A stretch of DNA of 64,000 nt from an uncultured Victivallales bacterium (GCA_964490525.1 CAZBDL010000001.1:25474-89473), one strand, 5' to 3'; shown: positions 8,364 to 29,895, counted from the stretch's first letter. The notes: a model not told the origin generated them from the letters alone. A program made the numbers and translations.

Positions 8364-8375
8364 GAGGACGGCACC

Positions 8376-10735: not shown

Positions 10736-10767
10736 CCCGTCAACAGGACAAAGGAAGGAAACCGGCC

Positions 10768-11244: not shown

Positions 11245-11314
11245 ACCCGTTGCCGTAGCGCACCATGAAGGGAACCGCTCAGCATCATGCTGGGCGACCG
11301 AAGGGAGCGATAGC

Positions 11315-12048: not shown

Positions 12049-12062
12049 CTGCGGGGTGAACC

Positions 12063-13130
12063 ATGGACAGCAACGATTCGGGCACCGTCCACGCCGACGA
12101 ACTGGCGATCATGGTAGACCGGCACATGAGGCTGAAGTACCGCGTTCCCCTGGCCGAGATGGAGATTGCCGACACCCCGGGCTATTGGCGAGACCGGGAG
12201 CCGAAGACGCACCCCGGCCACCCGCTGCACGGATGCCTCGGATGCCAGGGGCCCTTCCGGGCCACATACACATTCCATGATCCTCCCCGCGACAAGCGGG
12301 GCCGCCTGGCAAGCACCACGCGCACCTGGAAGGCGCTGAAGGAACACCAACCGAAGGGAGAAGGAGCCATGAAGACCGCCACCATCATGCTGCGGGACCG
12401 CCCGGATTCACCGTTCGAGCCGGTCGAGGTGCCGATCCTGGGCGCCTGCGGACCGTTTGCCGTCGCCAAGACCCCCTCGTTCAAGAGCAACGTCGCCGAC
12501 GGCTTCTATTCCGTCTACCACCTGCCCACCGGGCGGGTCATCGAGGGCAGCCTGCACCTGACGGCGGCACGCGCCATGGCCCGCTTCCTCCAGGAGGCCT
12601 GCGGCAAGGCCGCCGAGTCGGCCGACCACAAGGAAGCCGGGGAGGCCATTTTCCCGAAATACCGCCAGTTCTATGTCCAGGGAGCCTGGGAGGAGGCCGG
12701 GGCCGGCCCGGAGCTGGTCGCCGAGCTGAACAAGGCCGTCCTGCGCCACCGGGACGTGGAGTTCCGCCTGATCGGGAACCCCGTCTGCGAGATCCACGCC
12801 TACGACCAGGCGGAAAGGCGCATCGCCCCGAAGAACGAGCAGGACGACATCGCAAGGCTGGAAAGGTTCGTTGCGATGAACGCCCCGGGACTTCACGAAG
12901 TCACGGTCGAGGAGTTCCATGGCCCTCGGGGCATCGGGCAACTTCAGAACGAGCAGGTCACCCTGAGCGACAAGTACCCGCACATTTCCGTCTACAGGGA
13001 CGGTGCCAGGGCCGAGCGCGGCCGGATCGTCGGGTATATTCCCGACGGCGAGGGCCTGGCGAAGAAGCGCTGCTTCCTCCCGGATTCGCGCCATACGAAC
13101 AACATTGAAGAAAAAGGGATCACACCATGA
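12063..13130 (+). CDS. Hypothetical protein (355 aa), possibly a fusion of two cassettes
   Basis: Complete ORF. It contains an internal SD-like GGAGAAGGAGCC followed by an in-frame ATGA at 12369. Tail EEKGITP. Confidence 0.5.
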   Translation: MDSNDSGTVHADELAIMVDRHMRLKYRVPLAEMEIADTPGYWRDREPKTHPGHPLHGCLGCQGPFRATYTFHDPPRDKRGRLASTTRTWKALKEHQPKGEGAMKTATIMLRDRPDSPFEPVEVPILGACGPFAVAKTPSFKSNVADGFYSVYHLPTGRVIEGSLHLTAARAMARFLQEACGKAAESADHKEAGEAIFPKYRQFYVQGAWEEAGAGPELVAELNKAVLRHRDVEFRLIGNPVCEIHAYDQAERRIAPKNEQDDIARLERFVAMNAPGLHEVTVEEFHGPRGIGQLQNEQVTLSDKYPHISVYRDGARAERGRIVGYIPDGEGLAKKRCFLPDSRHTNNIEEKGITP

Positions 13131-13696
13131 AGACCAAGATTCACCAGGCCATCCTGAAGGACTATGGTACTCCCTACGATCTGGCCATCGCCGGCAAGCA
13201 GACCGGAGACACCCTCGCCGACTGGATCCATCGGACAGTCGAGGACGCGCACGAGGACGGGGAGAAGTATCCCCGCGTGTCCTGCGACGATTTGCTGTCC
13301 GCCGGCGCCGCCGAGCTTTCCAGCGTCGCATACGCATTGATCGAAGCCTCCCCGCGCGACCTGGCCGGCAAACCAAGCTGGAAGCCAGGCAGAAACAGCC
13401 TGCTCAAGGATGCGCCAAAGGGCCTGCTCTCCCTCCTGGACAAAGTGGCCAAGACCTATGGGGTCGAGGTTGAACTGTCCGCCGTGGAAGGGCCGGGCCG
13501 TTGCGGCGACCTCCTGGCCGATTTTCTCGTCGCTGAGTTGCATGACGTATGCAGGGAGGCCCAGGACACGGAGGAGGCGCTGGAATGCGCCATTGAGGCC
13601 ATCGAAAAGGCCGTCCACACAATCGACGGCGCCGCAATGGCAGCCAAAGCGGCTGACATTCAGGAGCAGCCTCAAGAAGAGGGTATCGCTCCATGA
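13127..13696 (+). CDS. Hypothetical acidic protein (189 aa), tail QEEGIAP
   Basis: Complete ORF with ATGA coupling at both ends. Confidence 0.5.
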   Translation: MKTKIHQAILKDYGTPYDLAIAGKQTGDTLADWIHRTVEDAHEDGEKYPRVSCDDLLSAGAAELSSVAYALIEASPRDLAGKPSWKPGRNSLLKDAPKGLLSLLDKVAKTYGVEVELSAVEGPGRCGDLLADFLVAELHDVCREAQDTEEALECAIEAIEKAVHTIDGAAMAAKAADIQEQPQEEGIAP

Positions 13697-14508
13697 ATGA
13701 TCGCCGCAACCCCTTCGCATTCGCGCTTGCGCTTGATACCGTAAGCCCGGGCAAAGGCCGGTTCTGGCTCCTGGTCGACAAAGGAGGCAACCCCGTGGAT
13801 TGTGCGCATCAGGCGCGGCCCGGCCTGCCGCTCTACGGCCTGGATGGCATCATGGGGAAGGTCCCGGGATGCACATGGACCATGGCCAGCCGGGTGCGGA
13901 TCCTCGGCCTTTCGGTTCTCGCCGAGGAGGCCGGCAGGATCGACCGGGAATACCTGTGCGCAATCCGCCGGCTCGATTGGGAGGAAGGGCAACGCCTGGT
14001 CGCCGAGGCCGCCGTGCGGGCCGGGTTCGGCCCGCATGCGAGGTTCCATGGGACGGATAGCAAGTTCACCGTCTTCACCCCCGGCGACGACGGCATCTGC
14101 TTCGTGGACTCCGTGGCGGTTGCCAAGGACTACGGGGATACGGTCATGGCCTGCTACCTGCGCATGCGGAAGCCCCACCGCATGACATACCGCAAATGGC
14201 TCATGAGCCACGATCCATCCTTCGAGGCATTGCAGGCGGCCGGCAAGGACGGCATCATCGTCTCCGGATTCCAGCAGGGCGAAGACAGGATCCATGATGC
14301 GAACTCAAACATGTTCGTCGTCTTCTCCCCGGAGCAGGTGCGGTCGGCCGCCCTCCTGGTCCGCGACGACGCCGGCAACATCGTCCTGCCATCGCGCCGG
14401 TTCGCCCCCGGCCCCGACATCCGGGGCGCCGTAGAGGAGACGAAGGCGCGGTGCGCCCAGGACCGGGAAACCCCCCGCGTGGAGGAGGAGGCTGGCATCT
14501 CCCCGTAG
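13693..14508 (+). CDS. Hypothetical protein (271 aa), weakly ADP-ribosyltransferase-like (polyvalent-protein ART type)
   Basis: RFHGTDSKFTVF ... FVDSVAVAKDYG ... KDGIIVSG...NMFVVFSPEQVRS resembles the HGT / A..Y / DGI...vvf.p.qi.s layout of ART-PolyVal domains. A catalytic Glu is not evident. Tail EEAGISP. Confidence 0.35.
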   Translation: MNDRRNPFAFALALDTVSPGKGRFWLLVDKGGNPVDCAHQARPGLPLYGLDGIMGKVPGCTWTMASRVRILGLSVLAEEAGRIDREYLCAIRRLDWEEGQRLVAEAAVRAGFGPHARFHGTDSKFTVFTPGDDGICFVDSVAVAKDYGDTVMACYLRMRKPHRMTYRKWLMSHDPSFEALQAAGKDGIIVSGFQQGEDRIHDANSNMFVVFSPEQVRSAALLVRDDAGNIVLPSRRFAPGPDIRGAVEETKARCAQDRETPRVEEEAGISP

Positions 14509-14530
14509 ACCGCCAGAAGTCTAGCGGTCT
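14507..14530. terminator. Hairpin AGACCGC-N10-GCGGTCT spanning the rep1 stop codon, inside a 63-nt block duplicated at 16513-16575
   Basis: 7-bp perfect stem. It lies between convergent gene ends (plus gene stop at 14506-08, rep1 stop at 14521-23). No U-tract. Confidence 0.4.
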
Positions 14531-16023
14531 GCCTTCCTTGGCCGACCGCGCCGCCGTGGGGGCTCTGACGGGGGTGAGCCAGTCAGCAGATATCGCGTGG
14601 CGACGAGGCCATACAGGCTGCGATCCTGGCGCAGCAATTCACGCACCTCGGAGGCCGGCGTGTCTGGATCGGGGGCGGGAATGCCGTCGTCATGGAACCA
14701 AACCAGGATTTGGCGCAGATTCTCGTCCGTCATATTGGCGCAGATGGATTCCATCAACTTGAGGGCTCCGTCCTCCTCCACCGGGGTAGCCGTCACCTCG
14801 ACGGGCGGGGCGACTTGCTCCCCCTGATTCAGGTGATCCTTTGCCCAGTACCGCCGCCAGGCAAACGGATCATTCTGCGCCTGCTCCCGGCCAAACTCCC
14901 CAAGCTGAACGAGCCACGTCTTGTATGCCTCCTCCATCGGCCTGCCGGGCTCGGCAAGCTCCGCCAGGGCCGCGATCTTCGACTCCATGGCGGCCCGCGC
15001 CGTTTCCCCGTCCCGTTCGGCCGCCCGGGCGGCAGCCTCCCCTTGGCGCATCTTCCGGCTCGCGACAAGCTCGCTGACCCTGGCGATGATTCGGTCGCGG
15101 AGAACGGCACCCTTCAACCCGTCGCGAAGGGCGTCATCGACAATCTTGCCGGCTTCGGCCATGGACACCAGCGAAAGCCAGTAGGTCCAGACGCGGCTGT
15201 CGGCAACCCCGGCACAGCGAACCTTGGCCGTGAGGACCTCGAAGGCCAGTTCCTCCTCCGTGGGATTGAGGTCGATCCCGGGCAGGTCGGGCTGGGCGGC
15301 GTCCCCTGCGGCCTCGCGCAAGGCGTTTGGCCGCCAGGAGAACTGGATTCGCCCCTTGGAGCCGCGCCCCTCCACCTCAACCGCAATCTTGACGTCAAGG
15401 ATGGAGGATATCTTTGAGATCGAAGGGGTGACGACCTTGATCATCATTTGGCCAAATGGGGAGAGGGAGGGCTCCAGGCGCATCTTGGCGGCAAGCTCGG
15501 CGCCTTCGATGGTGCAAATCCCAACAGAGTCCCATTGTGCCAGGATCATGTAGAGAGAGATGGGACGCATGCCGCGAAGCCGCTTGATGTTTGCAAGGTG
15601 AACCAGGATGAACCTGGCCTTGGCCTTGTCAAGAAGCCGAATGGAGATTTCAGAAAGGACGGCCGTGAACTCGCCGGTTCCCGGCTTGATCTCGATGTCC
15701 TGGAACAAGTCCGAAACGATGCTGTCGCCGGTTTTCGGGTCAGCGGGACCCTCGCAGTAGACGGTCCCCTTCTTGATGGCCACCGCATGGTCGCGCAGGG
15801 TCCGGTAGATTTCGTCCCGGCTTCCGCCCACGACCTGGTGAATGTCCGAAACGCGGCAGACGACCCGGTTGTCCAGGCGTGCGCCTTGCTGGTACATGCA
15901 GACAACGAAGAGCACCAGGCGCTGTTGGGTCTCGCTCAACGCGAGGACGCTGCCGAGCATGTCGTGTCCCAGCCTGGTGACAGAGTGCTGTGTTCCACCG
16001 CTTTTCGCCTTGCGCTTCCCCAT
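14521..16023 (-). CDS. Plasmid replication initiator (iteron-type Rep), paralog 1
   Basis: The N-terminal LALSETQQRLVLFVVC pattern is typical of winged-helix Rep_3-like initiators. Its own iteron set lies immediately upstream. C-terminal AT-hook-like PPRRRGRPRKADR. SD GAGGAGGAGG. Confidence 0.6.
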   Translation of the reverse strand: MGKRKAKSGGTQHSVTRLGHDMLGSVLALSETQQRLVLFVVCMYQQGARLDNRVVCRVSDIHQVVGGSRDEIYRTLRDHAVAIKKGTVYCEGPADPKTGDSIVSDLFQDIEIKPGTGEFTAVLSEISIRLLDKAKARFILVHLANIKRLRGMRPISLYMILAQWDSVGICTIEGAELAAKMRLEPSLSPFGQMMIKVVTPSISKISSILDVKIAVEVEGRGSKGRIQFSWRPNALREAAGDAAQPDLPGIDLNPTEEELAFEVLTAKVRCAGVADSRVWTYWLSLVSMAEAGKIVDDALRDGLKGAVLRDRIIARVSELVASRKMRQGEAAARAAERDGETARAAMESKIAALAELAEPGRPMEEAYKTWLVQLGEFGREQAQNDPFAWRRYWAKDHLNQGEQVAPPVEVTATPVEEDGALKLMESICANMTDENLRQILVWFHDDGIPAPDPDTPASEVRELLRQDRSLYGLVATRYLLTGSPPSEPPRRRGRPRKADR

Positions 16024-16046
16024 GGCCTCCTCCTCACCGCTGAAAA

Positions 16047-16070
16047 CGTGAATTTTCCACAGCAGAACGG
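16047..16070. promoter_or_regulatory. Inverted copy of the rep1 iteron between the rep1 promoter and start codon (putative autorepression operator)
   Basis: The reverse complement, CCGTTCTGCTGTGGAAAATTCACG, shares 21 identical nt with the iteron at 16270. Confidence 0.55.
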
Positions 16071-16167: not shown

Positions 16168-16313
16168 AAGAACTGTGGAAAGTTCGCGATTTGACCGGAT
16201 TAGTGCCGTTGAGATGCCGGGGCAACTGTGGAAAGTTCGCGGTTCTGCTGTGGAAATGTCGTGAAATCGCTGTGGAAAATTCACGGTTCTGCTGTGGAAA
16301 TGTCGCGATTATG
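16168..16313. repeat. Iteron array 1: five direct repeats with core CTGTGGAAA(N)TTCGCG/TCACGG
   Basis: CTGTGG cores start at 16173, 16226, 16248, 16270 and 16292; the last four are spaced exactly 22 bp apart. An AT-rich ATATAAAGAATAAAG block follows. Confidence 0.75.
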
Positions 16314-16516: not shown

Positions 16517-16540
16517 AGACCGCCAGAAGTCTAGCGGTCT
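16517..16540. terminator. Second copy of the AGACCGC-N10-GCGGTCT hairpin, spanning the rep2 stop
   Basis: Part of the 63-nt block 16513-16575, which matches 14503-14565 with 2 mismatches. Confidence 0.4.
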
Positions 16541-18057
16541 GCCTTCCTTGGCCGGCCACGCCGCCGTGGGGGCTCCGCCAGGTGATCCACCTCGATGTAG
16601 TCCCGGCCCTTCACCATCGGCTCGGATGGACCGTCCTCCGGGTCGCCCATGATCATCAGGCTCATCATCAGGGTTCGGCTGGTGTCATGCCCCTTGGCAT
16701 CCAGCTCCGCGACGCGGGCGCGGACCTGCGCCGCGCTGGATCCCACCGGCAGCCCCAGCAACTGGTTTCGCGCCGCAAGCCGCTCCAGCCTCTCGTCGGG
16801 CACGTCCGCAAGGGTGGGCCCCGGGGGCGGCGGAACCGGCTCCGCCGTGACGTCCACGGCCTCGCCGATCCGCCCGGAGCGCAGGGCGTCCTCCGCCCAG
16901 TAGCGGGTCCATTTCCCCGGCTCCTTCACCGCCATTTCCTGAGCGAACTCCCCCTGTCCCTCGATCCAGGCCAGGTACTCGGCGCGGTGCGGCCCGTCGT
17001 CTGCGGCCAGCGCCGCCAGGGACTCCACCTGGCCACGGTCCGGGCGCCCGGGGCCGGACGGGGCGGTGCCGCGGACTTCCGCCTCGCGACGGTTTGCGAC
17101 CAGGAGGGCATCGCTCACCTGGGCAACGATCCGATCCCGGAGGGCATGGTTCTTGAGCCCATCGCCAAGTGCCTTGTTGACTATTGTTGCTGTCTCTGTT
17201 GCCGACAACTGCCGCAGCCAATATCCATAGATTCGGTTGTCGCGTACTCCGGCAGCACGAACACGAGCGGTCAGAACCTCTAGCATAAGGTCGTCTTCAG
17301 ATATTTGAATCTTCATTCCTGGAAGTTCTGGTTGCCCGTCATCAGCAGCATCGCGAAGAGCATATGGTGGCCAGGAGAATATAACGCGGCCCTTGGTGCC
17401 GCGACCATGAACCTCAACCTTTACCTCGACGCCGAGGATGCTGGATATCTTCGAGATCGACGGATGAATGACCTGAAGCATGATGTGGCTCAATGCACGA
17501 TGGCTGCCAATGCGCAATGACTCGTACATTTCCGTAGATGAAACATCCCATGATCCAATGGCATCCCATTGGGCAAGAAGCAGGTAGAGGCTAACAGTCC
17601 ACCCCCCGTGCAGACGGCGGAGATTGGCTAGGTGAACCATGATGTACCGCGTCTTGAGTTCGGTCAACTTCTCGATGGTCTTTGCGGAAAGATAAACTGA
17701 AAACTCCCCGGTGGATGAGTCTATCTCGATATCATGGAAAAAACTTGTCACAAGCGTCTTGCCGTTTTCCGCATCAACCGGCTCGTCGCAATATATGGTT
17801 TTTGATTTCAGCGCGATGGCGTTGTCCCGCAGGGTTCTGTATATGACGTCCTTGTTCCCCCCAACAATACGGTGTATGTCGGGAACCTTGCACACCACTC
17901 TTGCGGATTTTTCAGGATCCTGTTGGTGGCGGCAAAAGACATAGAGAGCAAGACGTTGTTGCGTCTCACTCAACTCTATGAACCCAGACACCATGTCGTG
18001 GCCGATCTTCGTTGCACGCATCAGCCCAACGCCATCTCCCTTTGACCGTCGTCCCAT
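16531..18057 (-). CDS. Plasmid replication initiator (iteron-type Rep), paralog 2
   Basis: Collinear with rep1 along its whole length (roughly half the residues identical by eye), with the same C-terminal EPPRRRGRPRKADR. It has its own distinct iteron set upstream. Confidence 0.6.
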   Translation of the reverse strand: MGRRSKGDGVGLMRATKIGHDMVSGFIELSETQQRLALYVFCRHQQDPEKSARVVCKVPDIHRIVGGNKDVIYRTLRDNAIALKSKTIYCDEPVDAENGKTLVTSFFHDIEIDSSTGEFSVYLSAKTIEKLTELKTRYIMVHLANLRRLHGGWTVSLYLLLAQWDAIGSWDVSSTEMYESLRIGSHRALSHIMLQVIHPSISKISSILGVEVKVEVHGRGTKGRVIFSWPPYALRDAADDGQPELPGMKIQISEDDLMLEVLTARVRAAGVRDNRIYGYWLRQLSATETATIVNKALGDGLKNHALRDRIVAQVSDALLVANRREAEVRGTAPSGPGRPDRGQVESLAALAADDGPHRAEYLAWIEGQGEFAQEMAVKEPGKWTRYWAEDALRSGRIGEAVDVTAEPVPPPPGPTLADVPDERLERLAARNQLLGLPVGSSAAQVRARVAELDAKGHDTSRTLMMSLMIMGDPEDGPSEPMVKGRDYIEVDHLAEPPRRRGRPRKADR

Positions 18058-18070
18058 GGTTCACCCCGCG

Positions 18071-18089
18071 ATTGTTCCAAAATGTCTGT
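18071..18089. promoter_or_regulatory. Partial inverted copy of the rep2 iteron in the rep2 leader
   Basis: ATTGTTCCAAAATGTCTGT compared with the reverse complement of the iteron, ATTGCACCAAAAAGTCTGT. Confidence 0.4.
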
Positions 18090-18111
18090 CAATTCCTGAG
18101 AAATTGTTGTA

Positions 18112-18140
18112 TATATACACAAAAACATCAATCATGTCAA
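18112..18140 (-). promoter_or_regulatory. rep2 promoter (TTGACA-N17-TATATA)
   Basis: On the minus strand, TTGACA lies at 18140-18135 and TATATA at 18117-18112. Confidence 0.55.
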
Positions 18141-18229
18141 GGTTTCACATGCAAAAATGTTCATCTGCATCAAATTAGGTCGTTATTTTTAGTGTAAAGG
18201 ATATTTTTTTACAAATATTATCCGGAACA

Positions 18230-18392
18230 ACAGACTTTTTGGTGCAATTCATGTGCGCTTGCGGATATTTCGCCGCCCCGAGGGCATTATTTTCGATGCT
18301 CATCACAGACATTCCGGTGCAATTCTACAGACTTTTTGGTGCAATTTTACAGACTTTTTGGTGCAATTTTACAGACTTTTTGGTGCAATTCG
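18230..18392. repeat. Iteron array 2: direct repeats ACAGACTTTTTGGTGCAATT(TT)
   Basis: Copies start at 18230, 18305 (variant), 18327, 18349 and 18371; the last four have a 22-bp period. AT-rich TATATAAAGAATAAAAG follows. Confidence 0.8.
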
Positions 18393-18747
18393 TGCTTATA
18401 AGTCCTTGCATGATAATTACTTATGCTTTCCTAAATATATAAAGAATAAAAGGCATCTAAAGATGGGTTCGCTTCGCTCACGTCGCGCATGCGCGCGAGG
18501 CTGGCAGGCCATGGGAAATACGGGGGAGGGGAGAAATTCCCGGAGGCAGCCTTCGACCGGACCGGGATTGGCTGGCTGGAAGGGGAGGGCATCGCCCTTT
18601 GTCCTGGACCCCTTCCCAGATGGCCGGAAACGCACCGTCCAGGGCCATTTGCGGGGAAATCCGCCCAGGAGGCCGGACAAGGGGGGCAGATGCGGCGGAG
18701 CGTGGCGCATGGGGCATGGTTCTCCGTGACGAAAATATTTATACCAC

Positions 18748-18776
18748 TTGACACAACAATAAGCAAGACGATATTT
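18748..18776 (+). promoter_or_regulatory. cas operon promoter (TTGACA-N17-ATATTT)
   Basis: TTGACA at 18748-18753 and ATATTT at 18771-18776. SD GGAGGAGG lies before the cas5 ATG. Confidence 0.6.
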
Positions 18777-18804
18777 ACGCAACTCAAAACGGAGGAGGCG
18801 AGCG

Positions 18805-19407
18805 ATGGATCATGTCCTTGAGGCATGGGGCCCGTATGGCTGCTTCACCCGGCCCGACTTCGGGACGGAGCGGGTCAGCTACCCGGTGATCACCCCCTCG
18901 GCGGCCCGGGCGCTCTTCGAGGCGGTGTACTGGAAGCCGCAGATGGCCTGGCAGGTGACGCGGATCGAGGTCCTGCGGATGGGGCGAACGATGCCCCTGC
19001 GCACGAACGAGGTGAAGGCTCGGGCCGGCGCCAACCCGATCTTCGTGTCGGAGCACCGGATCCAGCGGCACAGCCTGATCCTGGCGGACATCGCCTACCG
19101 GCTGCATGCGGAGATCGTGTTCCTGGGCGGCGAGGCCCCCGGGCCGAAGCACACGGAGATGTTCCGCCGGCGCCTGGAGCGGGGCCAGGTCCACCACCGG
19201 CCCTATTTCGGGTGCCGCGAGTTCGCCTGCGAAGTGGGCCCGCCAACGGACAGGGAGCCGGAGCGAATCAGCCTTGACCTCGGCACGATGCTCCTCGACC
19301 GCGACTGGGAAGGGCTGGGCGACCCGCCCCGGTTCTTCCATGCCAGGATCGCGGACGGGACCATCATGGTTCCGGCGCGGCCGCTGCGCCAGGCAGGTGC
19401 CGCATGA
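18805..19407 (+). CDS. cas5c: Cas5c (Cas5d), type I-C pre-crRNA endoribonuclease and Cascade subunit
   Basis: LEAWGPYGCFTRPDFGTERVSYPVITPSAARALFEAVYWKP matches the hallmark Cas5d N-terminus. First gene of the cas5-cas8c-cas7 order. Confidence 0.9.
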   Translation: MDHVLEAWGPYGCFTRPDFGTERVSYPVITPSAARALFEAVYWKPQMAWQVTRIEVLRMGRTMPLRTNEVKARAGANPIFVSEHRIQRHSLILADIAYRLHAEIVFLGGEAPGPKHTEMFRRRLERGQVHHRPYFGCREFACEVGPPTDREPERISLDLGTMLLDRDWEGLGDPPRFFHARIADGTIMVPARPLRQAGAA

Positions 19408-20975
19408 TCGCCGCGCTGGCCAGGCTGCAGGAACGGCTGGTGGACGGGGGAGAGGCCCTGCCCGCCGGGTGGGAGAGGAGGAAGCTCACGGCCCTGGTGT
19501 GCGTGAACGAGGCCGGGCTTGGCATCGGCCTGCGCTTCCGCGAGGAGGATTTTCCCGTCCCCGTCCGTCCCCAGCGGGCGAACTCCATCGCTCCCGGGCT
19601 GGCCTGGGACACTCCGGAGTACGCCCTGGGCATCCCCCGGAAGTCGAGCCCGGAACGCACCGCCGAGATGCACCGGCTCTTCCGGCTGCGCCTCGACGCG
19701 CTGGACTGCGACGACCCCGGCCTGGAGGCCGTGCGCCGATTCCTCGCCAGGGAAGGGGACCGGCTGCTGTCCGGCATCGACCAGGTGGCCGCCCAGCCGG
19801 GCGCGACCCTCGGGTTCATCCTGCTCGACGACGAGGAGCCGGTCCACCTGCGGCCGGCCGTGCGGGCGGCGATCCAGGACGAACTGGACAGGGCGGCCGA
19901 TCCCGGCGAGGACGCCGAGGAGGGGCAATGCTCCATAACGGGGCGCGACGGGGCCATCGCCCGGCTCCACCCGAAGATCCGCTTCCCCGGCGGGCGGGCC
20001 AGCGGCACCAGCCTCGTCAGCTTCAACGCCCCCTCCCTTGAGCACTTCGGCAGGGAGCAGGGAGGAAACGCGGCCGTCGGGGAGGGCACGGCGGCCGATG
20101 CCGCCGCCGCGCTCAATGCCCTGCTGGCGCCGGACTCCCTGCGGAGGCTCATGGTCGAGGGACTGGCCGTCCTGGCCTGGACCGAGGGGCCGTCGCCGGC
20201 CGAGGGGCGCGTCATCCCGATGCTGGAGGGATCCGGCGACATCGCGGAGGAGGACCTGGAATCTTCGGATGCCGTCCACCTGGCGGTGCTGGCGCCTCGT
20301 GACGGGCGCCTCTCGGTCCAGCTCTGGGAGACCCTCCCCATGGGGACGCTGGCCGCCAGGATCGCCGAATGGCGGCGGCGGACGCGGCTGCCGGCCGACG
20401 CCGAGCCCCCGCCCCATTGGGCCGTGCTCCGTTCAATCCAGCGGGGAGGGGGCCAGGTGCCCCACGGGATCGCCACCGCGTACCTTCGGGCCATGGTCCT
20501 CGGGCTGCCGCTGCCGCCGTCCCTGGTGCGCCCGGCGCAGGAGGCCGTGCTCGCCGCGCTCGCGGCGCGGCGCCCCGTGCCGCCGGCCATCGCCATCGTC
20601 AACCATTCGGCCATGGAGGGCCGCGAACCCATGAACGAGGACATCCTCCTGCCGGCCGGGCAACAGTCGGAGGCCTACCGCCTCGGCCGGTTCTTCGCCG
20701 TCGTCTCCTGCGCCTGCCGCAAGGCCGGGCTCGACCGGAACGCCCCCCAGGCCGCCATGCGCCCCAGGGCCATGGCGGAAAGGGCCATGGCCAAGTACAA
20801 CGGCTACAGCATGGGCAAGGGGCTCCGCGTGCATTACGACAAGATCATCGACGACATCCTCGCGGGCGTCTCCGATCCGGTCCCGGAAACCCTCGGCCCC
20901 GTCCAGCGGGGAGAGTTCATCCTCGGATTCCACCACCAACGCAAGGCCATCTTCACCAAGGGAAAGGGCAACTGA
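19404..20975 (+). CDS. cas8c: Cas8c (Csd1), type I-C large subunit
   Basis: 523-aa ORF between cas5c and cas7c, with an ATGA overlap with cas5c. Position and size fit Csd1. The sequence was not independently recognised motif by motif. Confidence 0.75.
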   Translation: MIAALARLQERLVDGGEALPAGWERRKLTALVCVNEAGLGIGLRFREEDFPVPVRPQRANSIAPGLAWDTPEYALGIPRKSSPERTAEMHRLFRLRLDALDCDDPGLEAVRRFLAREGDRLLSGIDQVAAQPGATLGFILLDDEEPVHLRPAVRAAIQDELDRAADPGEDAEEGQCSITGRDGAIARLHPKIRFPGGRASGTSLVSFNAPSLEHFGREQGGNAAVGEGTAADAAAALNALLAPDSLRRLMVEGLAVLAWTEGPSPAEGRVIPMLEGSGDIAEEDLESSDAVHLAVLAPRDGRLSVQLWETLPMGTLAARIAEWRRRTRLPADAEPPPHWAVLRSIQRGGGQVPHGIATAYLRAMVLGLPLPPSLVRPAQEAVLAALAARRPVPPAIAIVNHSAMEGREPMNEDILLPAGQQSEAYRLGRFFAVVSCACRKAGLDRNAPQAAMRPRAMAERAMAKYNGYSMGKGLRVHYDKIIDDILAGVSDPVPETLGPVQRGEFILGFHHQRKAIFTKGKGN

Positions 20976-20976
20976 C

Positions 20977-22071
20977 ATGCAGCAGCAGGAAACCATCGGC
21001 CGGCACGACCTCGTGCTCCTCTTCGACGTCAGGAACGGCAACCCCAACGGCGACCCGGACGCGGGCGGCATCCCGCGAGTGAACCCGCTCAACGGGCACG
21101 GCATCGTCACCGACGTGTGCATCAAGCGCAAGATCCGCAACTTCGTCCAGCTCGACAAGGGGTTCGAGCCGCCGTACGACATCTACGTCCGGGAGAAGAG
21201 CGTCCTCGGCGCCGCCCACTTCAAGATCTGCGAGGAGCTGGGGATCGACGCCGGCGCGTCGGCGGTCCGCGAGATCGCCCCGGAGATCGCCGAGGCCATC
21301 GGCATGACCGAGTTGCCCGAGGGCGTCGAGGTCATTGAGGACGGCGACGCGCGGCGGCTGGTCGTGGCGTCCACCGCCGACGTGGCCGCCGTGAAGCGGT
21401 ACGTCAAGGAATCCGGGCTCGACAAGGCGGCCGCCAGGGCCGTGGCAGACACCCTCAAGGAGGCGCGGCCCCGCAAGCTCTCACGCGACGAGTCCGAGCG
21501 CGGATGCGAGGCCATGTGCCGGCGCTACTTCGACATCCGCGCCTTCGGCGCCGTCCTCTCCCTCAAGTCCGCCCCCAACTACGGGCAGGTGCGCGGCCCC
21601 GTCCAGGTCACCTTCGCCGAGAGCCTGGACCCCATCACCCCCGTCGAGACGACCGTCACGCGCTGCGCCGTGACCACCGAGGCCGAGTCCGCCGACCAGG
21701 GAGGGGAGAACCGCACCATGGGCCGGCGCACCATCGTCCCCTACGCCCTCTACCGTGCCCATGTCTTCGTCTCCGGCCCGTTCGCCGCGCGTACCGGGTT
21801 CGGCCAGGCGGACCTCGACCTGGTGCTCCGGGCCCTCGCCGGCATGTTCGAGCACGACCATGCCGCCGCACGCGGCGAGATGAACGTACGGGCCCTGTGC
21901 GGCTTCCGGCACGCCTCCCCCATGGGCAACGCCCCGTCGGGCACGCTCCTGGAGCGAATCAAGGCCACCAGGGCGCAGGACCGCCCCTGCCCCGCGTCGT
22001 TTGCCGACTACCGGATCGAGACGGACACCGGCAACCTCCCCGAGGGCGTCGAGTTCATCCGCGTCGTCTAG
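20977..22071 (+). CDS. cas7c: Cas7c (Csd2), type I-C backbone subunit
   Basis: LLFDVRNGNPNGDPDAGGIPRVNPLNGHGIVTDVCIKRKIRNFV is the characteristic Csd2 N-terminal signature. Confidence 0.9.
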   Translation: MQQQETIGRHDLVLLFDVRNGNPNGDPDAGGIPRVNPLNGHGIVTDVCIKRKIRNFVQLDKGFEPPYDIYVREKSVLGAAHFKICEELGIDAGASAVREIAPEIAEAIGMTELPEGVEVIEDGDARRLVVASTADVAAVKRYVKESGLDKAAARAVADTLKEARPRKLSRDESERGCEAMCRRYFDIRAFGAVLSLKSAPNYGQVRGPVQVTFAESLDPITPVETTVTRCAVTTEAESADQGGENRTMGRRTIVPYALYRAHVFVSGPFAARTGFGQADLDLVLRALAGMFEHDHAAARGEMNVRALCGFRHASPMGNAPSGTLLERIKATRAQDRPCPASFADYRIETDTGNLPEGVEFIRVV

Positions 22072-22253
22072 CCGCGCGAACCCCAAGCTGACACCACGCC
22101 ACGCACAACGGTTCGCGGAACCCGCAACCCGCTCCACCATCAACACATGCAGCTTCCCGGGGCGACCCGGGAGCCATGCCGGCGGGGCGGCCGGGGCGGG
22201 TTCGCGCGAACGGTTCCTTGACAACTTGGCGCACAATGACTTGCGCATTGACC
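22072..22253 (+). promoter_or_regulatory. CRISPR leader with GGTTC/GAACC palindromes and a -35-like TTGACA
   Basis: GGTTCGCGGAACC at 22110-22122. The 12-nt palindrome GTTCGCGCGAAC at 22200-22211. GGTTCC at 22212-22217 abuts TTGACA at 22218-22223. No convincing -10 was found. Confidence 0.45.
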
Positions 22254-23859
22254 CCTTCGCCTCGCACGCGAGGCGCGGATTGAAACAACACATAAGCGGC
22301 GGTGATGGCGTCCTCGAAACCTTCGCCTCGCACGCGAGGCGCGGATTGAAACGGCCTGGACAAAAAAATCCTCATCGGGCATCTCCTTCGCCTCGCACGC
22401 GAGGCGCGGATTGAAACCGTTGCGGCGGACGCGGGGGACGCGCTGCGAGCCTTCGCCTCGCACGCGAGGCGCGGATTGAAACGCGGATTACGCGGCGTGT
22501 ATATTTGGGCGAAAGGCCTTCGCCTCGCACGCGAGGCGCGGATTGAAACCGGGTGATCTCGGTGCGGCCAATGGGAAACAGACCTTCGCCTCGCACGCGA
22601 GGCGCGGATTGAAACCTCGTGCCTTGACCCGAGGCTTGTATCAATTGAGTCCTTCGCCTCGCACGCGAGGCGCGGATTGAAACGAGTCGGGCACGTCCTC
22701 GAGGTAGCCGTTCACCGCCTTCGCCTCGCACGCGAGGCGCGGATTGAAACCGGGCGGTTGATATCCATACTGCGAACTACGCCACCTTCGCCTCGCACGC
22801 GAGGCGCGGATTGAAACCGGCTCCGCATGATCAGGGCATACAGCCCGCTCCCTTCGCCTCGCACGCGAGGCGCGGATTGAAACCTGCCGTTGCTGGCGAT
22901 CCTCGACGGGCATTCCTTCGCCTCGCACGCGAGGCGCGGATTGAAACCCGTCCAGCCCGTGGCGGACGACGTGGCCGAACTCCTTCGCCTCGCACGCGAG
23001 GCGCGGATTGAAACATGAGGGTCTTAGAGCTGATGCTGCTGGGGTACCCTTCGCCTCGCACGCGAGGCGCGGATTGAAACTTGCGCGCGCGCGGCCTCAA
23101 AAACGAGCAACGACCTTCGCCTCGCACGCGAGGCGCGGATTGAAACTCGGCGAGGCCGAGGATCGCCCCCTGGGCGGCGCCTTCGCCTCGCACGCGAGGC
23201 GCGGATTGAAACCCCGGCATGCCAGGCAGCTCCGGCTGGTCGAGCCTTCGCCTCGCACGCGAGGCGCGGATTGAAACCATGTCCTACGGACATAGCGTGG
23301 CAGGGGCGAGCCTTCGCCTCGCACGCGAGGCGCGGATTGAAACTGTGTGCACGGGAAATGTATGCAGCAACGCTTCCCTTCGCCTCGCACGCGAGGCGCG
23401 GATTGAAACACCGTCGGGCAGATGGCGGACTACCTGGGGATCGCCTTCGCCTCGCACGCGAGGCGCGGATTGAAACTCTCAATCACCATCGCCTGGGGGG
23501 GAGGACATTCCTTCGCCTCGCACGCGAGGCGCGGATTGAAACCCAGCAGGGGTACCTGCCGAGACATGCCGGGCACCTTCGCCTCGCACGCGGGGCGCGG
23601 ATTGAAACAATTTTTCCGTGGATGACGCCCAGGCGAAAGCCCCTTCGCCTCGCACGCGAGGCGCGGATTGAAACCCTAATTGTCTGCCAGCTCCCAGTCG
23701 AGGATCCTTCGCCTCGTACGCGAGGCGCGGATTGAAACGACGATTGACCGTGGATTCCTGTGGATGGCTTCTTCGCCGCATAATGAGGCGTGGATTGAAA
23801 TCATTGCCAAGCTGAGTGATATGTTCATATTCGCCCGATACCCGGGCGCGGATTGAAAC
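22254..23859 (+). CRISPR. Type I-C CRISPR array: 25 repeats (23 conserved plus 2 degenerate at the distal end) and 24 spacers
   Basis: The repeat is (C)CTTCGCCTCGCACGCGAGGCGCGGATTGAAAC, 32-33 nt, with a 7-bp stem CGCCTCG/CGAGGCG and the I-C-typical ATTGAAAC 3' end. The period is 64-68 bp. Point variants occur at 23577 and 23707. The degenerate repeats are at 23771-23801 and 23829-23859. Confidence 0.97.
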
Positions 23860-24184
23860 ATTGTAGCGTCCAATGGCAGGAAAAATCCCAATCCCCGCCC
23901 TGGCGGGGAGGGGAACCATTTCTGGCTGGAAGGGGAAATATCGGGAATCCTGTCCCCGGGTGGCCGGGGACGCGCTTTCCGGGCCCCCGGCAGGGGAATC
24001 CGGCCCAGAGGAAGGGGCGACATCGCCGCGAAGGTGCGTCAAAATGGCCCACGACTGCCTTGGCGTGGCAGTTAAAAATTCCACCTGGCAATCTCCGGGC
24101 TGATTCAACCCCAGCAGGAAGCTGGACGGCCGTCCATGGCACCGCCGCAGGCGGCTAGAATGGACTGGCCGGATTGTCCCGTTT

Positions 24185-24630
24185 GTTCCATGTGTCCGCG
24201 TGTTCCTGGTTCGCTCCCCGTTCCAGGGCCGGGCACAGGGCGCCGGCCTCCGCATGTTCCAGGTGTGCCGCCCCCCGTTCCATGGTTCCCTGGTTCCTCC
24301 CCTGGTTCCCTAGTTCGCCACGCAACCCAACCCTGGCCGGTGTCCCGGCGTCCGGGGTGATGTTCCCTTGTCGTTCCCGGGGTGACCGATGGGCGTTCCC
24401 GTTCCTTGGTTCAGTCCCCTGTTCCCCGGTTCCCTGAACTCGGGCGCGTTGCGGCCGGGGTGGCCGGCGCAGCCGGGCAATGTTCCCTGGTTCCCCCCGG
24501 TTCCCTGTTGTTCCTGCCGGTTCCCCGGCTCTGCCCGGGCCGCCGGCGCGGGATGGCGCCTGGCCCTGGGGGGGGCGCCCCACGGCCTAAATGACACAAG
24601 ATCCAACCATGTTCCGGGTGTGGATGTTCC
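24185..24630 (+). repeat. Non-coding block with about 21 same-strand copies of GTTCC (mostly (G/T)GTTCC(C/T))
   Basis: Examples are at 24277, 24285, 24292 and 24304, and at 24482, 24490, 24499, 24509 and 24519, with 7-12 bp spacing. All are on the plus strand. The only overlapping ORFs are low-complexity shadows. Confidence 0.7.
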
Positions 24631-24717
24631 CGGGTTGCCCGCCGGCGGAGGCCTTGCGGGGGGGCTTTTTAGCCGACATGGCAATGGGGCTAAAATGTTA
24701 GATAATCCTATAAAAAC

Positions 24718-24746
24718 TTGACAACGAGATTCAGGCGGCCGATGGT
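24718..24746 (+). promoter_or_regulatory. Candidate promoter (TTGACA-N17-GATGGT) with an AT-rich upstream element
   Basis: TTGACA at 24718-24723, preceded by TAAAATGTTAGATAATCCTATAAAAAC. The -10 is weak. Confidence 0.4.
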
Positions 24747-24784
24747 ATGGGCGAACCAAGGCACCCAGCACCGGGAGGACCGCG

Positions 24785-25168
24785 ATGAAGGCGCTGCTGA
24801 TCGACGCGACGGGACGGCGGATCCGGGAGGTGCAGACGGACGGCACCCTGCAGGACTGGTATGCGAAGCTGGACTGCCGGACGGTGGAGATGCGCGACCT
24901 GGACGAGGCGGGTCGCAACGTCCTGGTCTTCGACGAGGAGGGGCTCTTCACGAAGCGCGACGGGTTCACGGTGCGGGGGCAGTTCTTCGCCGGCAGCGGC
25001 CTGGTGATCGGCTACGACCGGCGGCGGGACCGGGCGGCCGACCCGACCGCAGCGCCGGAGGAGCTGGGGATCCTCTTTGGCGACCTGAGCGACAGCCAGG
25101 CCGAGACGATCCTGGAGGAGGGCATCAAGGTCTTCGCCTGGGACGACCAGGGCGGAGTGGCAATGTAG
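24785..25168 (+). CDS. Hypothetical protein (127 aa), tail DDQGGVAM
   Basis: Complete ORF with SD GGGAGGA upstream. Confidence 0.55.
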   Translation: MKALLIDATGRRIREVQTDGTLQDWYAKLDCRTVEMRDLDEAGRNVLVFDEEGLFTKRDGFTVRGQFFAGSGLVIGYDRRRDRAADPTAAPEELGILFGDLSDSQAETILEEGIKVFAWDDQGGVAM

Positions 25169-25193
25169 GTCCATGAACGGAAGGAGCGGAGCC

Positions 25194-25655
25194 ATGGGCA
25201 AGTACTGGGTCACGAACGTCCTCGAGGAGGGGAGCGCCGGCCAGGCGGGGCAATGCAAGATCCAACTGCACCGCCGGGAAATGAGGAACGGAGAGGCGTT
25301 CTCGGTCCTGGCCGGGCGCGGCACCGGGATGGTGGTCGCCGAATGCCGCGAAGGGGGGCGCCGCATGGTCAGCCTGGACGGCATCACCTATGCCAGCAAG
25401 CGGGAGATGGAGCTGTTCCGGGCGCACGCCCAGGAGCAGGGGGCGGGAGCGTTCGGGCTCCTGTGCCACATGGTCCAGGAGGCGCCGTGCCCGGAGCTGC
25501 CCATAGGCGTCGGGCAGTACAGGGAGGGGGCAGGGAAGGTGCGCTGTTCCGTGACCGACGCGCTCCAGCATGCCTGTTCCAGCGATCCCCGGCGGGAGCT
25601 GCCCATGGTCCATGTGGGCGAGAACCAGGAAGACCAGGGCGGAGTGACGATGTAG
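25194..25655 (+). CDS. Hypothetical protein (153 aa), tail EDQGGVTM
   Basis: ATG at 25194 has an AGGAG 9 nt upstream. The alternative ATG at 25173 lacks an SD. Confidence 0.5.
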   Translation: MGKYWVTNVLEEGSAGQAGQCKIQLHRREMRNGEAFSVLAGRGTGMVVAECREGGRRMVSLDGITYASKREMELFRAHAQEQGAGAFGLLCHMVQEAPCPELPIGVGQYREGAGKVRCSVTDALQHACSSDPRRELPMVHVGENQEDQGGVTM

Positions 25656-26875: not shown

Positions 26876-27175
26876 ATGCGCTACCGATTGAACGACGGAA
26901 GAATCGTGCCGGCGGCCAAGGATTGCGACTGCTGCACGCACGCCGGCCCGCATTGGATCCACATGGACGATGCCTGGCGGGCACGGAACCGGCAACTCCT
27001 CCAATCCGGCACCAGCCTCGGAATCATGGGGCACGCCCAGGAAGAGCAGGCCCGCCTTCGGGCCAAGCTGTACGAGATGACGAGCCGGGGGATTGCCGAG
27101 ATCATCCGCGACGAGCCTCGGCAGGAGCGGCAGGTGGTGGGGGAAGAGGAATCCGACGAAGGCATGAAGGTGTAG
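26876..27175 (+). CDS. Hypothetical protein (99 aa)
   Basis: Complete ORF. Contains Cys/His-rich CDCCTHAGPHWIH. Confidence 0.45.
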   Translation: MRYRLNDGRIVPAAKDCDCCTHAGPHWIHMDDAWRARNRQLLQSGTSLGIMGHAQEEQARLRAKLYEMTSRGIAEIIRDEPRQERQVVGEEESDEGMKV

Positions 27176-27724: not shown

Positions 27725-28492
27725 CTACCCCCCGCAGATTCCGCAGGCACGGCCCTCGTCCGGGCCGCAGCGGCGCCCCGACTGCCCCTTGCCGAAGTGG
27801 CGGCAGCCTGAGTTGTGACGGATGCCCGAGGAGGTGTTCAGCCAATGCGTACCCGTTCCCACGCCGGCGCTCCCGGAGTCCTTGCCGGGAGGATCCGCCC
27901 CCCGGGATCCAGCCCCCCGGCGGTATTCCCATGGCGGGATACGGTCGGGACGCGACCAGAGCCCCAGGCCGGCGGCACGGGCCTCCGCCTCCGCCCCCGC
28001 CAACGCCTCGTCGTCGGAGTAGGCCAGGTAGTGCCAGGCCAGCCCGGCCTTGACCAGGGAAAGGTTCAGGTTCTCCCCGTCCGGGCAGAGCACCGTGGCC
28101 ACCGTGCGGCCGTACCGGTCCACCGCCTCCGGATGCACCGCCACCACCTTCCCGAAGACCCGGGCCGAGGCATGCTCCTTGGCCACCTGGCCGAAGTCCT
28201 GTCCCTTCTCCGGGCAGTCGATCCCCGCCAGGCGGATGCGCACCTGCACCCCCCCGTCGCGCAGCACCGTCAGGGTGTCCCCGTCGCTCACCCCCACGAC
28301 CTTCCCGGCGAAGGGCTCCATGGCGCGGAGCGCCGGCGCGGCAAGGGCCAGGAGCAGCAACGGCATGGCAAGGACAATGCCCTGCTGGAGGAAGAATTGG
28401 AGGCATCGGCCTGGGGGCTTCAGGCGGGTTCCCTTCAGGGCCTTCAGCCCACCCTCCGGCGGCCTGCCGTGATGCCTGTCCAGATGCCCCAT
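27725..28492 (-). CDS. Secreted staphylococcal-nuclease (SNase/thermonuclease)-like endonuclease
   Basis: GKVVGVSDGDTLTVL...VRIRLAGIDCPEKGQDFG...DRYGRTVA...LVKAGLAW is the SNase fold signature. It has a hydrophobic signal-like segment, LAMPLLLLALAAPALRA. ATG at 28492 has a GGAGGAGGAGG 6 nt upstream. Confidence 0.8.
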   Translation of the reverse strand: MGHLDRHHGRPPEGGLKALKGTRLKPPGRCLQFFLQQGIVLAMPLLLLALAAPALRAMEPFAGKVVGVSDGDTLTVLRDGGVQVRIRLAGIDCPEKGQDFGQVAKEHASARVFGKVVAVHPEAVDRYGRTVATVLCPDGENLNLSLVKAGLAWHYLAYSDDEALAGAEAEARAAGLGLWSRPDRIPPWEYRRGAGSRGADPPGKDSGSAGVGTGTHWLNTSSGIRHNSGCRHFGKGQSGRRCGPDEGRACGICGG

Positions 28493-28533
28493 GTCAACCT
28501 CCTCCTCCATGCGATGAACCTCCCCGTCCTGCA

Positions 28534-29301
28534 TCATGCCTCGATGACCGCGTATGCCGTGGATGACCCCCCGATGCTCCCCGGGTTGACGCACCGGCAG
28601 CCCTCCACCGTCGCCCCCGCATGCCGCAGGTGCGTGTGCCCATGCACCGCCCAGTCGAAGCGGGCCTCCGAGAGCAGTCCGGCGCATCCAGAGAAGGCGC
28701 TGAACGGGCCCGGCGGAAGCCGGTTCAGGTCCCGGTGCGGCAGCGTGTGCGTCAGCAGGATCGTGGCCCGCATCCCCGGCCGCAGATGCTCATGGATCGC
28801 GTCCACGCAACGGGCATGCTCCACCGCCGGGTCGAACCCCCGGATCGCATGGTCCGGCCAGCTCCCGCCGGCGAAGTCCAGCAGCCGTTGCCCCGGCACC
28901 GCCGCCAGGCTCCCGTCGTACCAGAGCGCGTTGCCCACCAGCAGCAGCCCGGGAACCGGCTCATGGCTCCCTACCACGTCCAGGCAATGCACATCCCAGC
29001 GCCCCGGGTCGTACAGCCGCCGGTGCTCCGCCACCGTCTCCGCTACGCTCCGCCCGAAGCACTCGTGGTTGCCCAGGACGAAGACCACCGGAACCCCCGG
29101 GAACCACTCCGCGAGGATCTCGTGCGGGTTGCGCCACGGCAGGGGCTCGGCGTCGAGCAACGGGCTCTCGAAGATGTCACCGGCCAGCAGCACCAGGCCC
29201 ACCCGTCCGGCCCGCCGGCGCACCCCCGCGAGACGGTGGGACAGGAGCCTAGGCTCCCCCGCCGGGTGGCTGTGCAGGTCGGCCAGGCAAAGGATGCGCA
29301 C
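28534..29301 (-). CDS. Calcineurin-like metallophosphoesterase
   Basis: ILCLADLH, LAGDIF, VLGNHE and GHTH motifs. GTG start at 29301 with GGGAGGG upstream. Confidence 0.75.
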   Translation of the reverse strand: MRILCLADLHSHPAGEPRLLSHRLAGVRRRAGRVGLVLLAGDIFESPLLDAEPLPWRNPHEILAEWFPGVPVVFVLGNHECFGRSVAETVAEHRRLYDPGRWDVHCLDVVGSHEPVPGLLLVGNALWYDGSLAAVPGQRLLDFAGGSWPDHAIRGFDPAVEHARCVDAIHEHLRPGMRATILLTHTLPHRDLNRLPPGPFSAFSGCAGLLSEARFDWAVHGHTHLRHAGATVEGCRCVNPGSIGGSSTAYAVIEA

Positions 29302-29678: not shown

Positions 29679-29801
29679 GAGGACCCCACATCTACATGGA
29701 TGTTGACCCCGGGTTTGGCATACCATGGCTACATCGGGCCTCCAACCACACGCAGACTTGCATACAACTCTACCAATCGTATATCTAACAGGATTATGAT
29801 C

Positions 29802-29835
29802 TGTAGGCACGGGAAATGTATGCAGCAACGCTTGA
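29802..29835 (+). other. Protospacer-like self-match to CRISPR spacer 17 (23344-23377)
   Basis: 30 of 34 positions are identical, with an uninterrupted 27-nt run (29807-29833). Mismatches fall at spacer positions 4, 5, 33 and 34. The 5' flank at 29799-29801 is ATC. The match is in the same orientation as the crRNA sense strand. Confidence 0.9.
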
Positions 29836-29860
29836 CATACACGATTCATATGCCATATTT
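29832..29860 (+). promoter_or_regulatory. Promoter of the RHH-relaxase operon (TTGACA-N17-ATATTT)
   Basis: TTGACA at 29832-29837 and ATATTT at 29855-29860. Same architecture and same -10 hexamer as the cas promoter. Confidence 0.6.
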
Positions 29861-29895
29861 GTAGCAAAGTACACAACAGCAGCAGGAGAATGACC

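Follow-up and report, generated by a model that had tools for sequence, protein, structure and literature searches.

A stretch of 64,000 nucleotides from an uncultured Victivallales bacterium (GCA_964490525.1 CAZBDL010000001.1:25474-89473), hereafter the window, was analysed for a type I-C CRISPR-Cas module at positions 18748-23859. The window belongs to an NCBI contig of 89,703 bp, of which approximately 25.7 kb lie beyond it; 1.3 kb of this remainder, on the left side, was read as well. A conjugative plasmid is recognisable in the window by two Rep3 initiators with iterons, ParA, a type IV secretion system (T4SS) coupling protein, a TraC/VirB4-like ATPase, and TrbI. As judged from sequence, the I-C locus is an effector module without nuclease or adaptation genes in cis, located beside the replication region of this plasmid.

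The module lies on the plus strand. As the first-pass annotation of this DNA had described, it consists of a promoter, cas5c, cas8c, cas7c, a leader, and a CRISPR array, with nothing else, and open reading frames (ORFs), protein families, and the promoter were found where that annotation had placed them. The gene cas5c (18805-19407, 200 aa) scored 112.6 bits against TIGR01876 (cut-off 85) and matched PF09704; its product is predicted to be the endoribonuclease subunit that cuts the CRISPR RNA (crRNA) precursor. The product of cas8c/csd1 (19404-20975, 523 aa), the large subunit, was barely above the cut-off of TIGR01863 (222 vs. 218.65 bits) and covered the full PF09709 model with an E-value of 1.4e-65. 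The backbone subunit gene cas7c/csd2 (20977-22071, 364 aa) reached 303.8 bits with TIGR02589 (cut-off 182.25) and matched PF05107. PADLOC agreed with all three assignments. An internal cas11c frame (20631-20975, 114 aa) is predicted within cas8c; its ATG corresponds to Cas8c M410, and a GGAGGG motif ends 10 nt upstream of it. The cas starts are coupled, by an ATGA overlap (19404-19407) and by a 1-nt gap (20975/20977), respectively. A sigma-70-like promoter, TTGACA-16-GATATT (18748-18775, 10/12 matches), precedes the operon and is accompanied by the ribosome-binding site GGAGGAGG. No terminator-like site was found in 18000-24800, so the array, which is separated from the cas7c stop by a leader of 182 nt (22072-22253), may be read from the cas promoter. 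A single promoter probably serves cas5c-cas8c(+cas11c)-cas7c and the array too.

The CRISPR array (22254-23859, plus strand) is composed of 23 intact and two decayed repeats with 24 spacers. The 32-nt repeat CTTCGCCTCGCACGCGAGGCGCGGATTGAAAC was present in 23 copies with at most one mismatch (chance expectation 0), 21 of them exact. A long array of near-identical repeats had been taken by the first-pass annotation as an argument against decay, and this count bears it out. Both decayed repeats (23769-23800 and 23828-23859) sit far from the leader, as expected if the array grows at the leader end. Spacer sizes were 27-36 nt, and at least 22 spacers were unique. The fold of the repeat is a 7-bp hairpin, and the 11-nt tail behind it, CGGAUUGAAAC, corresponds to the I-C 5' handle; the repeat's 3' end (ATTGAAAC) is identical to that in the arrays of three canonical I-C loci (L003, L007, and L008). 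Neither the exact 32-mer nor a loop-free pattern with stem and handle fixed matched anything in 185,579 species-representative genomes, JGI metagenomes, or IMG/VR. The earlier suggestion that the spacers came by trans-acquisition from a host I-C system was therefore left without support, as an array with this repeat stem and handle was found nowhere in the collections searched.

Comparison with sibling plasmids gave the strongest argument for the nature of the locus. The siblings were found via the putative relaxase of the plasmid, which had four relatives in 5.8 billion clusters. L004 (JGI 3300044603) is syntenic, with approximately 80% nucleotide identity to the window; L005 (Logan SRR27760788) reaches 94.6% identity in some parts, and L006 is more distant. 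In blastn, positions 3856-4223 of L004 corresponded to window 18332-18688 and positions 4216-5808 to window 23909-25524, the two blocks being directly continuous in the sibling; homology with L005 stops at window 18676. Since L004 is continuous across the site, positions 18689-23908 (plus strand) are a clean 5.2-kb insertion of promoter, effector genes, and array only. This cassette, absent from L004 and L005 by blastn and junction alignment, contains the promoter, cas5c-cas8c-cas7c, the leader, and the array, leaving margins of approximately 60 nt (left) and 45 nt (right). The left junction is also crossed, with 100% identity, by an independent Logan assembly (L001, SRR5011273). This comparison argues that "effector plus array" is an acquired unit and not an artefact of the window edge.

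Transposon-like ends were considered as well and rejected; neither terminal inverted repeats nor a target-site duplication were found at the cassette borders. The flanks, rich in guanine and cytosine (GC) (18500-18690 and 23900-24030), share related short units, GGCTGGCTGGAAGGGGA and GGGGAAAT/GGGAATCC, which recur in L004 at 4080-4360. Such repeated backbone units flanking the cassette may have permitted its gain or loss by recombination.

Genes for a nuclease and for adaptation were sought by several methods. A tblastn search with Cas3, Cas4, Cas1c, and Cas2 from the canonical, plasmid-borne I-C locus of Deinococcus aetherius (L003) gave a best E-value of 0.28 in the 64 kb; the same run recovered Cas5c, Cas8c, and Cas7c. 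Among the best 25 of 31 Pfam and the best 25 of 51 PADLOC families obtained with 129 ORFs, only I-C effectors, a type II restriction-modification pair, and plasmid functions were represented. PADLOC (E up to 0.01) and NCBIfam detected no Cas3, Cas1, Cas2, Cas4, DinG, HNH, or Tns proteins among the 76 ORFs without strong annotation. All these scans agree with the first-pass annotation, which had recognised no HD-helicase, Cas1, Cas2, or Cas4 in the 64 kb. The 1.3 kb to the left of the window (Logan contig L002, SRR5011273) encodes no Cas protein.

Such a gene complement is not the norm for plasmid-borne I-C loci. In PLSDB, 48 plasmids had a Cas7c match, and cas3 abuts cas5c in all seven of the plasmid-borne I-C loci inspected. 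Five of these loci, from D. aetherius, Z. mobilis, Acidisoma, S. californicus, and D. wulumuqiensis, also have cas4-cas1-cas2. No adaptation genes are listed for T. thermophilus HB27 pTT27 and B. laterosporus pAZOBL1, an absence that is less certain given the incomplete gene tables of PLSDB. The two closest Cas7c relatives, the ones whose contexts were inspected, likewise belong to full cas3-cas5-cas8-cas7-cas4-cas1-cas2 loci.

The effector proteins themselves are isolated, and each of Cas5c, Cas8c, and Cas7c formed a single-member cluster. For Cas8c, an exhaustive HMMER search over 1.84 billion representatives and a word-indexed search of 5.8 billion clusters were performed; the best relative had an E-value of 1.8e-42 and 30-38% identity over the matched stretches. 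Cas7c was 50-54% identical to many Cas7c proteins of approximately 365 aa from canonical loci, the best relative being at 54%. No closer relatives of Cas5c, Cas8c, or Cas7c were found in 15 billion proteins, the source contig included. Against three canonical loci, identities were 47-53% for Cas7c, 28-32% for Cas8c, and 46-48% for Cas5c; canonical loci compared among themselves at the same Cas7c distance (approximately 52%) gave 31-35% for Cas8c and 51-55% for Cas5c. Unusually fast evolution of Cas8c was ruled out by this calibration, in which its divergence is proportionate. The whole module, and not Cas8c alone, thus appears to be a deep I-C branch. An extra Cas7c segment of approximately 80 aa was considered as a new domain and rejected, being common to a large clade of canonical Cas7c.

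The motifs for crRNA processing and Cascade assembly are present, to judge by alignments and models. Cas5c aligned to the N. lactamica Cas5 chain 8G9T_N with an E-value of 8e-40, and Y42 and K115-H116 occupy the positions of the Tyr/Lys/His triad of Cas5d structures, presumptively the catalytic residues. Cas8c aligns end to end with its D. vulgaris and N. lactamica counterparts, and its AlphaFold model is confident (pLDDT 88.7, pTM 0.85). With this model, Foldseek returned significant matches only to I-C Cas8 chains, with an E-value of 1.6e-30 to 8DFS_I and a TM-score of 0.82 to 8G9T_K of N. lactamica. The predicted Cas11c aligned to D. vulgaris Cas11c (7KHA_K, E 1.5e-7), and its ATG at 20631 lines up with the conserved V/M at which Cas11c starts in relatives. 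The cas genes had been described as intact, and full length, coupled starts, promoter, Cas5c triad, Cas11c start, and the confident Cas8c model all fit that description.

The only spacer with an identifiable near-target was spacer 17 (23344-23377, plus strand), which matched 30 of 34 positions of a near-protospacer on the plasmid itself (29802-29835, plus strand; blastn-short E 9.5e-11). Spacer and site disagree at spacer positions 4, 5, 33, and 34; on its 5' side, the site is flanked by ATC, not TTC. Under the type I rules for the seed and the protospacer-adjacent motif (PAM), mismatches at seed positions 4 and 5 together with a non-TTC flank would spare the resident copy. Clues to the PAM of the module are this single near-protospacer with its ATC flank, the Cas8c PAM-loop motif, ANS vs. 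the common TSG/SGS, and the replacement of the Cas8c wedge Gln by Arg.

The near-protospacer is located in a divergent intergenic region of 320 bp, where it is overlapped by the -35 element of a promoter, TTGACA-16-TG-CATATT (29832-29859, plus strand). This promoter precedes an operon of a small RHH-like gene (29890-30123, plus strand; RHH_4 E 0.01, below threshold) and a putative relaxase of 348 aa (30120-31166, plus strand; Pfam Relaxase PF03432 E 0.056, below threshold), continuing into the T4SS coupling protein (33502-35697). The 348-aa protein has the motif HDGTDNKHFH, which we take to resemble the relaxase motif HxDx(5)HxH. On the minus strand, 8 nt from the near-protospacer, there is a MOBP-type nick-core-like motif, ATCCTG(T) (29788-29794), kept in three of four sibling plasmids according to the alignment. 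ATCCTG is the MOBP nick core, and on the nicked strand the binding repeat of the relaxase and accessory protein normally adjoins its 5' side (PMC3772185); the spacer 17 site falls where this repeat is expected. The region of the near-protospacer is a putative origin of transfer (oriT) of the plasmid.

Window 29680-30061, comprising the oriT-like region and most of the RHH gene, gave no blastn alignment with any of three siblings, and its flanks are 80-95% identical. The segment looks like a swapped or fast-evolving specificity segment. Given the 30/34 match and an oriT segment that is unalignable in the siblings, the donor of spacer 17 would have borne the same oriT allele, and it was probably the resident plasmid or a very close competitor.

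For the other spacers, no targets were detected. The 24 spacers, searched as a concatenate, had no match in PLSDB or INPHARED at E up to 1, and no spacer matched the sibling plasmid loci. The spacer 17 core was not found in IMG/VR or the JGI metagenomes, nor were spacers 1, 2, and 4 in IMG/VR. An ungapped scan of the spacers against the plasmid gave, beyond spacer 17, only sub-significant GC-rich matches: spacers 14, 11, and 10 matched window 51940-51973, 9895-9929, and 27102-27133 at 25/34, 24/35, and 22/32 positions, respectively. In total, six ungapped matches had at least 68% identity, vs. a mean of 1.5 for shuffled spacers. The matches of spacers 14, 11, and 10 may be compositional, these spacers being GC-rich, and were not taken as targets.

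Our tentative interpretation is that the locus is an intact, Cas3-less I-C Cascade-plus-array module which acts by binding and whose targets include closely related plasmids, the whole having been acquired as a cassette. A minimal I-C derivative would have entered the conjugative plasmid as the 5.2-kb cassette beside the replication origin. Cas5c would cut the transcript into crRNAs with an 11-nt 5' handle (...AUUGAAAC), and Cascade would form R-loops on matching DNA. With no Cas3 partner, the bound complex would occlude its target in the manner of CRISPR interference (CRISPRi) and could block promoters, relaxosome assembly, or replication of close rival plasmids. The resident plasmid would escape through its differing PAM-side flank and seed. 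The spacers may have come along with the cassette, or an adaptation complex acting in trans may have inserted them.

Several observations weigh against this interpretation. The Cas8c recruit loop appears to be retained, so that docking of Cas3 would stay possible, and the proportionate divergence of Cas8c gives no sign of a functional shift. Approximately 25.7 kb of the source contig and the host chromosome lie outside the examined DNA. For 23 of the 24 spacers, PLSDB, INPHARED, and the sibling loci contained no target, nor did IMG/VR for the subset searched there; the single spacer match is imperfect and to self. The first-pass annotation had gone as far as a Cascade that "can bind but not degrade", which is not established in view of the retained loop and the DNA outside view.

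A more specific form of the same idea seems unlikely to us. The module might be a programmable exclusion device, in which a nuclease-free I-C Cascade occludes the oriT/relaxosome promoter of near-identical rivals and blocks their transfer or establishment, with the resident shielded and adaptation provided in trans by a non-cognate system; it would then be convergent with type IV-A3. Targeting of oriT, if true, would help to explain why the oriT-RHH segment is hypervariable among siblings that are otherwise 80-95% identical.

Alternatively, the module may be the targeting half of a complete system, with Cas3 (and Cas1-Cas2-Cas4) supplied from the remaining 25.7 kb or from the host chromosome and targets degraded as in canonical I-C. 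We regard this as possible, though rather improbable. The Cas3 of I-C is naturally recruited in trans to the full R-loop (bioRxiv 10.1101/2023.08.05.552134), and the recruit loop of Cas8c, which in N. lactamica spans A276-P297 and contacts the Cas3 HD domain, is largely kept with hydrophobic residues. Loss of this loop, at which a 53-aa deletion in the alignment with D. vulgaris had hinted, was rejected, since the alignments with N. lactamica and with 147 sequences place the deletion just after it. What is gone is a segment of approximately 20 residues following the recruit loop, within the wedge domain that docks the Cas3 HD domain in N. lactamica (bioRxiv 10.1101/2023.08.05.552134). Arg replaces the wedge Gln, a residue conserved in 75% (Q212 in D. 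vulgaris), and both changes speak against a Cas3 partner. Some support for a complete system comes from two observations: mismatches in the seed and flank of the self near-target are the trace expected from escape from a damaging effector, and an array with 21 identical repeats and at least 22 unique spacers suggests that new spacers could still be acquired in the fairly recent past. Plasmid CRISPR systems, moreover, commonly lack adaptation genes (present in 36% vs. 88% on chromosomes) and are thought to borrow them (PMC9071438). On the other side, an array with this repeat stem and handle occurs in none of the species-representative genomes or JGI metagenomes, and with no Cas7c above 54% and no Cas8c above 34% identity in the protein collections, a cognate sister system able to lend Cas3 is not evident. 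The cassette also arrived without cas3, which the seven other plasmid I-C loci keep joined to the operon. If Cas3 and Cas1-Cas2-Cas4 were nevertheless borrowed from the host, the result would be a split type I system, shared between plasmid and chromosome.

The third possibility, which we consider doubtful, is that the module is inert, a piece of a formerly complete I-C locus that reached the plasmid and has ceased to be selected for any CRISPR function. The same gene content in the Bacillus cereus group has been interpreted as an end point of degeneration (PMC7242445), the three proteins are singletons without close relatives, and no external spacer targets were found in PLSDB or INPHARED. 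Compared with its 146 relatives in the 147-sequence alignment, Cas8c is the shortest and departs from many near-invariant positions. Its basic N-terminal "vice" is shortened by seven residues, and the Cas11-like domain has a 12-residue deletion, with loss of a His conserved in 92%. It also has K464 in place of a Pro conserved in 100%, and the change E435S. In DNA with 70% GC, long open frames are weak evidence of selection. As to lesions in cas8c and cas7c, which the first-pass annotation had named as a refutation, each of the three cas genes can be aligned over its full length in a single frame; deletions and changed conserved residues are present in Cas8c and Cas11c. Continued function is favoured, however, by the intact catalytic and assembly motifs, by the confident Cas8c model, and by the preserved coupling, promoter, ribosome-binding site, and identical repeats. 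The cassette borders, moreover, enclose a complete unit and cut through no gene. An inert module would add to the record of I-C erosion on mobile elements.

Self-regulation, in which Cascade with crRNA 17 would bind oriT and the promoter on its own plasmid and tune the relaxosome/transfer operon or nicking, is very improbable: the sole spacer match does lie on the plasmid itself, in the oriT-like region and across the -35 of the relaxosome promoter, and a nuclease-free complex would tolerate self-binding, but there is a single site only, the seed mismatches together with the ATC flank are the least binding-compatible configuration under type I rules, and crRNA-like regulators of the CreA/CreR type show the opposite of the spacer 17 pattern, keeping PAM and seed and losing the distal part.

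The plasmid that carries the module is remote from catalogued ones. Its backbone had no megablast match in PLSDB, and the nearest Rep and VirB4-like proteins, from Allochromatium and Opitutaceae, are 25-29% identical. A Rep/iteron module had been reported as the upstream neighbour of the cas operon, and a Rep3-family initiator (16531-18057, minus strand; PF01051 E 1.6e-12) indeed lies there with its five 22-bp iterons ACAGACTTTTTGGTGCAATT of family D4 (18230-18394, minus strand). A second, tandem Rep3-family initiator (14521-16023) has its own distinct 22-bp iterons, CTGTGGAAA..., at 16173-16308, with an inverted copy at 16044-16062. The one Rep of L004 is similar to Rep2 in its C-terminal part (77% at the nucleotide level) and to Rep1 in its N-terminal part (65%). 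The non-coding repeat block reported downstream of the array was identified at 24285-24631, where GTTCCC occurs twelve times on the same strand in 350 bp, vs. a background of approximately 0.9 per kb. The block is conserved in L004 at 71.6% identity and therefore belongs to the backbone, outside the cassette; it may be a protein-binding array, e.g., a centromere-like or operator site.

The transfer region (33502-55367) is likewise very remote from catalogued plasmids; its VirB4/TraC-like ATPase (1062 aa) was at best 28.7% identical to a protein of the Opitutaceae TAV5 plasmid. Large ORFs of 856, 541, and 490 aa in this region had no Pfam match, and an ORF of 731 aa (44272-46467) contains InlB B-repeat (Flg_new_2) domains. 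Window 1-14508 encodes domains of the polyvalent-protein type (LPD1, LPD5, and ART-PolyVal), RadC, and an AAA_5 ATPase, and an SNase-domain protein (27725-28687) and a metallophosphoesterase (28534-29301) adjoin the oriT-like region. All of these are conserved in the sibling plasmids and are thus part of the backbone, not linked to CRISPR. The restriction-modification pair, a methyltransferase (PADLOC E 1.9e-252) and an XamI-family endonuclease, is located in a low-GC island (59749-62252, GC 52-60%). Window 61187-63451 has a 100% identical counterpart in another JGI metagenome contig, 3300029893 (L010).

The I-C complex is the most compact type I Cascade and has already been engineered for CRISPRi and editing. 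The present case is unusually testable, with three genes, one array, a 5.2-kb cassette, siblings without the cassette, and a near-target in a recognisable oriT/promoter region.

With canonical I-C systems (Dvulg; D. vulgaris and N. lactamica, PDB 8DEJ and 8G9T/8G9U), the module shares the Cas5c triad, a Cas8c with internal Cas11c, Cas7c, and the lack of Cas6, as well as the cas5-cas8-cas7 order, a hairpin repeat with an 11-nt handle ending in ...ATTGAAAC, and the Cas8c fold (TM-score 0.82). It differs in that cas3 is missing upstream and cas4-cas1-cas2 downstream, where the array comes directly after cas7c. Its Cas8c is shorter (523 vs. 556-634 aa) and differs in the wedge Gln to Arg change and in deletions within the vice, the wedge, and the Cas11-like domain.

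Reduced I-C loci of this kind have been published before, both with cas5-cas8-cas7 only and as other Cas3-less variants, and the novelty claimed by the first-pass annotation was overstated. "Variant I-C d4", described from 24 strains of the B. cereus group (PMC7242445), has the same gene content as the module, namely cas5, cas8, and cas7 only. Compared by description, d4 is close to intact I-C loci of the same species group and has reduced spacer diversity, whereas the module is a deep singleton lineage in a discrete conjugative-plasmid cassette with 24 spacers and uniform repeats. A recent origin from a complete I-C locus within its clade is not indicated, since no relative above 54% (Cas7c) or 34% (Cas8c) identity was present in the searched collections. 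In huge phages, an I-C variant without Cas1 and Cas2 has a helicase that replaces Cas3 (PMC7162821). Unlike other I-C-derived effector modules that occur on mobile or unusual loci and lack Cas3 and Cas1/Cas2, the present one has neither a substitute helicase nor a Cas8-Cas5 fusion; its subunits are separate and of ordinary architecture.

CRISPR-associated transposons (I-F3, I-B, I-D, and V-K) resemble the module in placing a type I Cascade without Cas3 or adaptation genes on a mobile element. No tnsA/B/C or tniQ families were detected in the window scans, however, and the module has no transposon ends at its borders and no evident homing spacer. Type IV-A3 systems are borne on conjugative plasmids, are nuclease-free, and acquire spacers in trans, and a role in inter-plasmid conflict by crRNA-guided silencing has been proposed for them (bioRxiv 10.1101/2023.06.23.546257). 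The module is similar in its conjugative-plasmid location and in lacking an adaptation module and a nuclease, a likeness in possible mode and not in family: it has no Csf proteins, Cas6, or DinG helicase, and PADLOC, Pfam, and NCBIfam scans of the window detected no type IV Csf1/Csf2/Csf3, DinG, or CysH-like accessory protein, the CRISPR models being I-C only. If functional without Cas3, the module would show that RNA-guided silencing in conflicts between plasmids has evolved a second time, independently of type IV. What appears to set it apart from these systems is the combination of its position as a deep singleton branch, its demonstrable insertion as a cassette into a conjugative plasmid, the length and uniformity of its array, and a spacer directed toward the putative oriT region of its own plasmid family.

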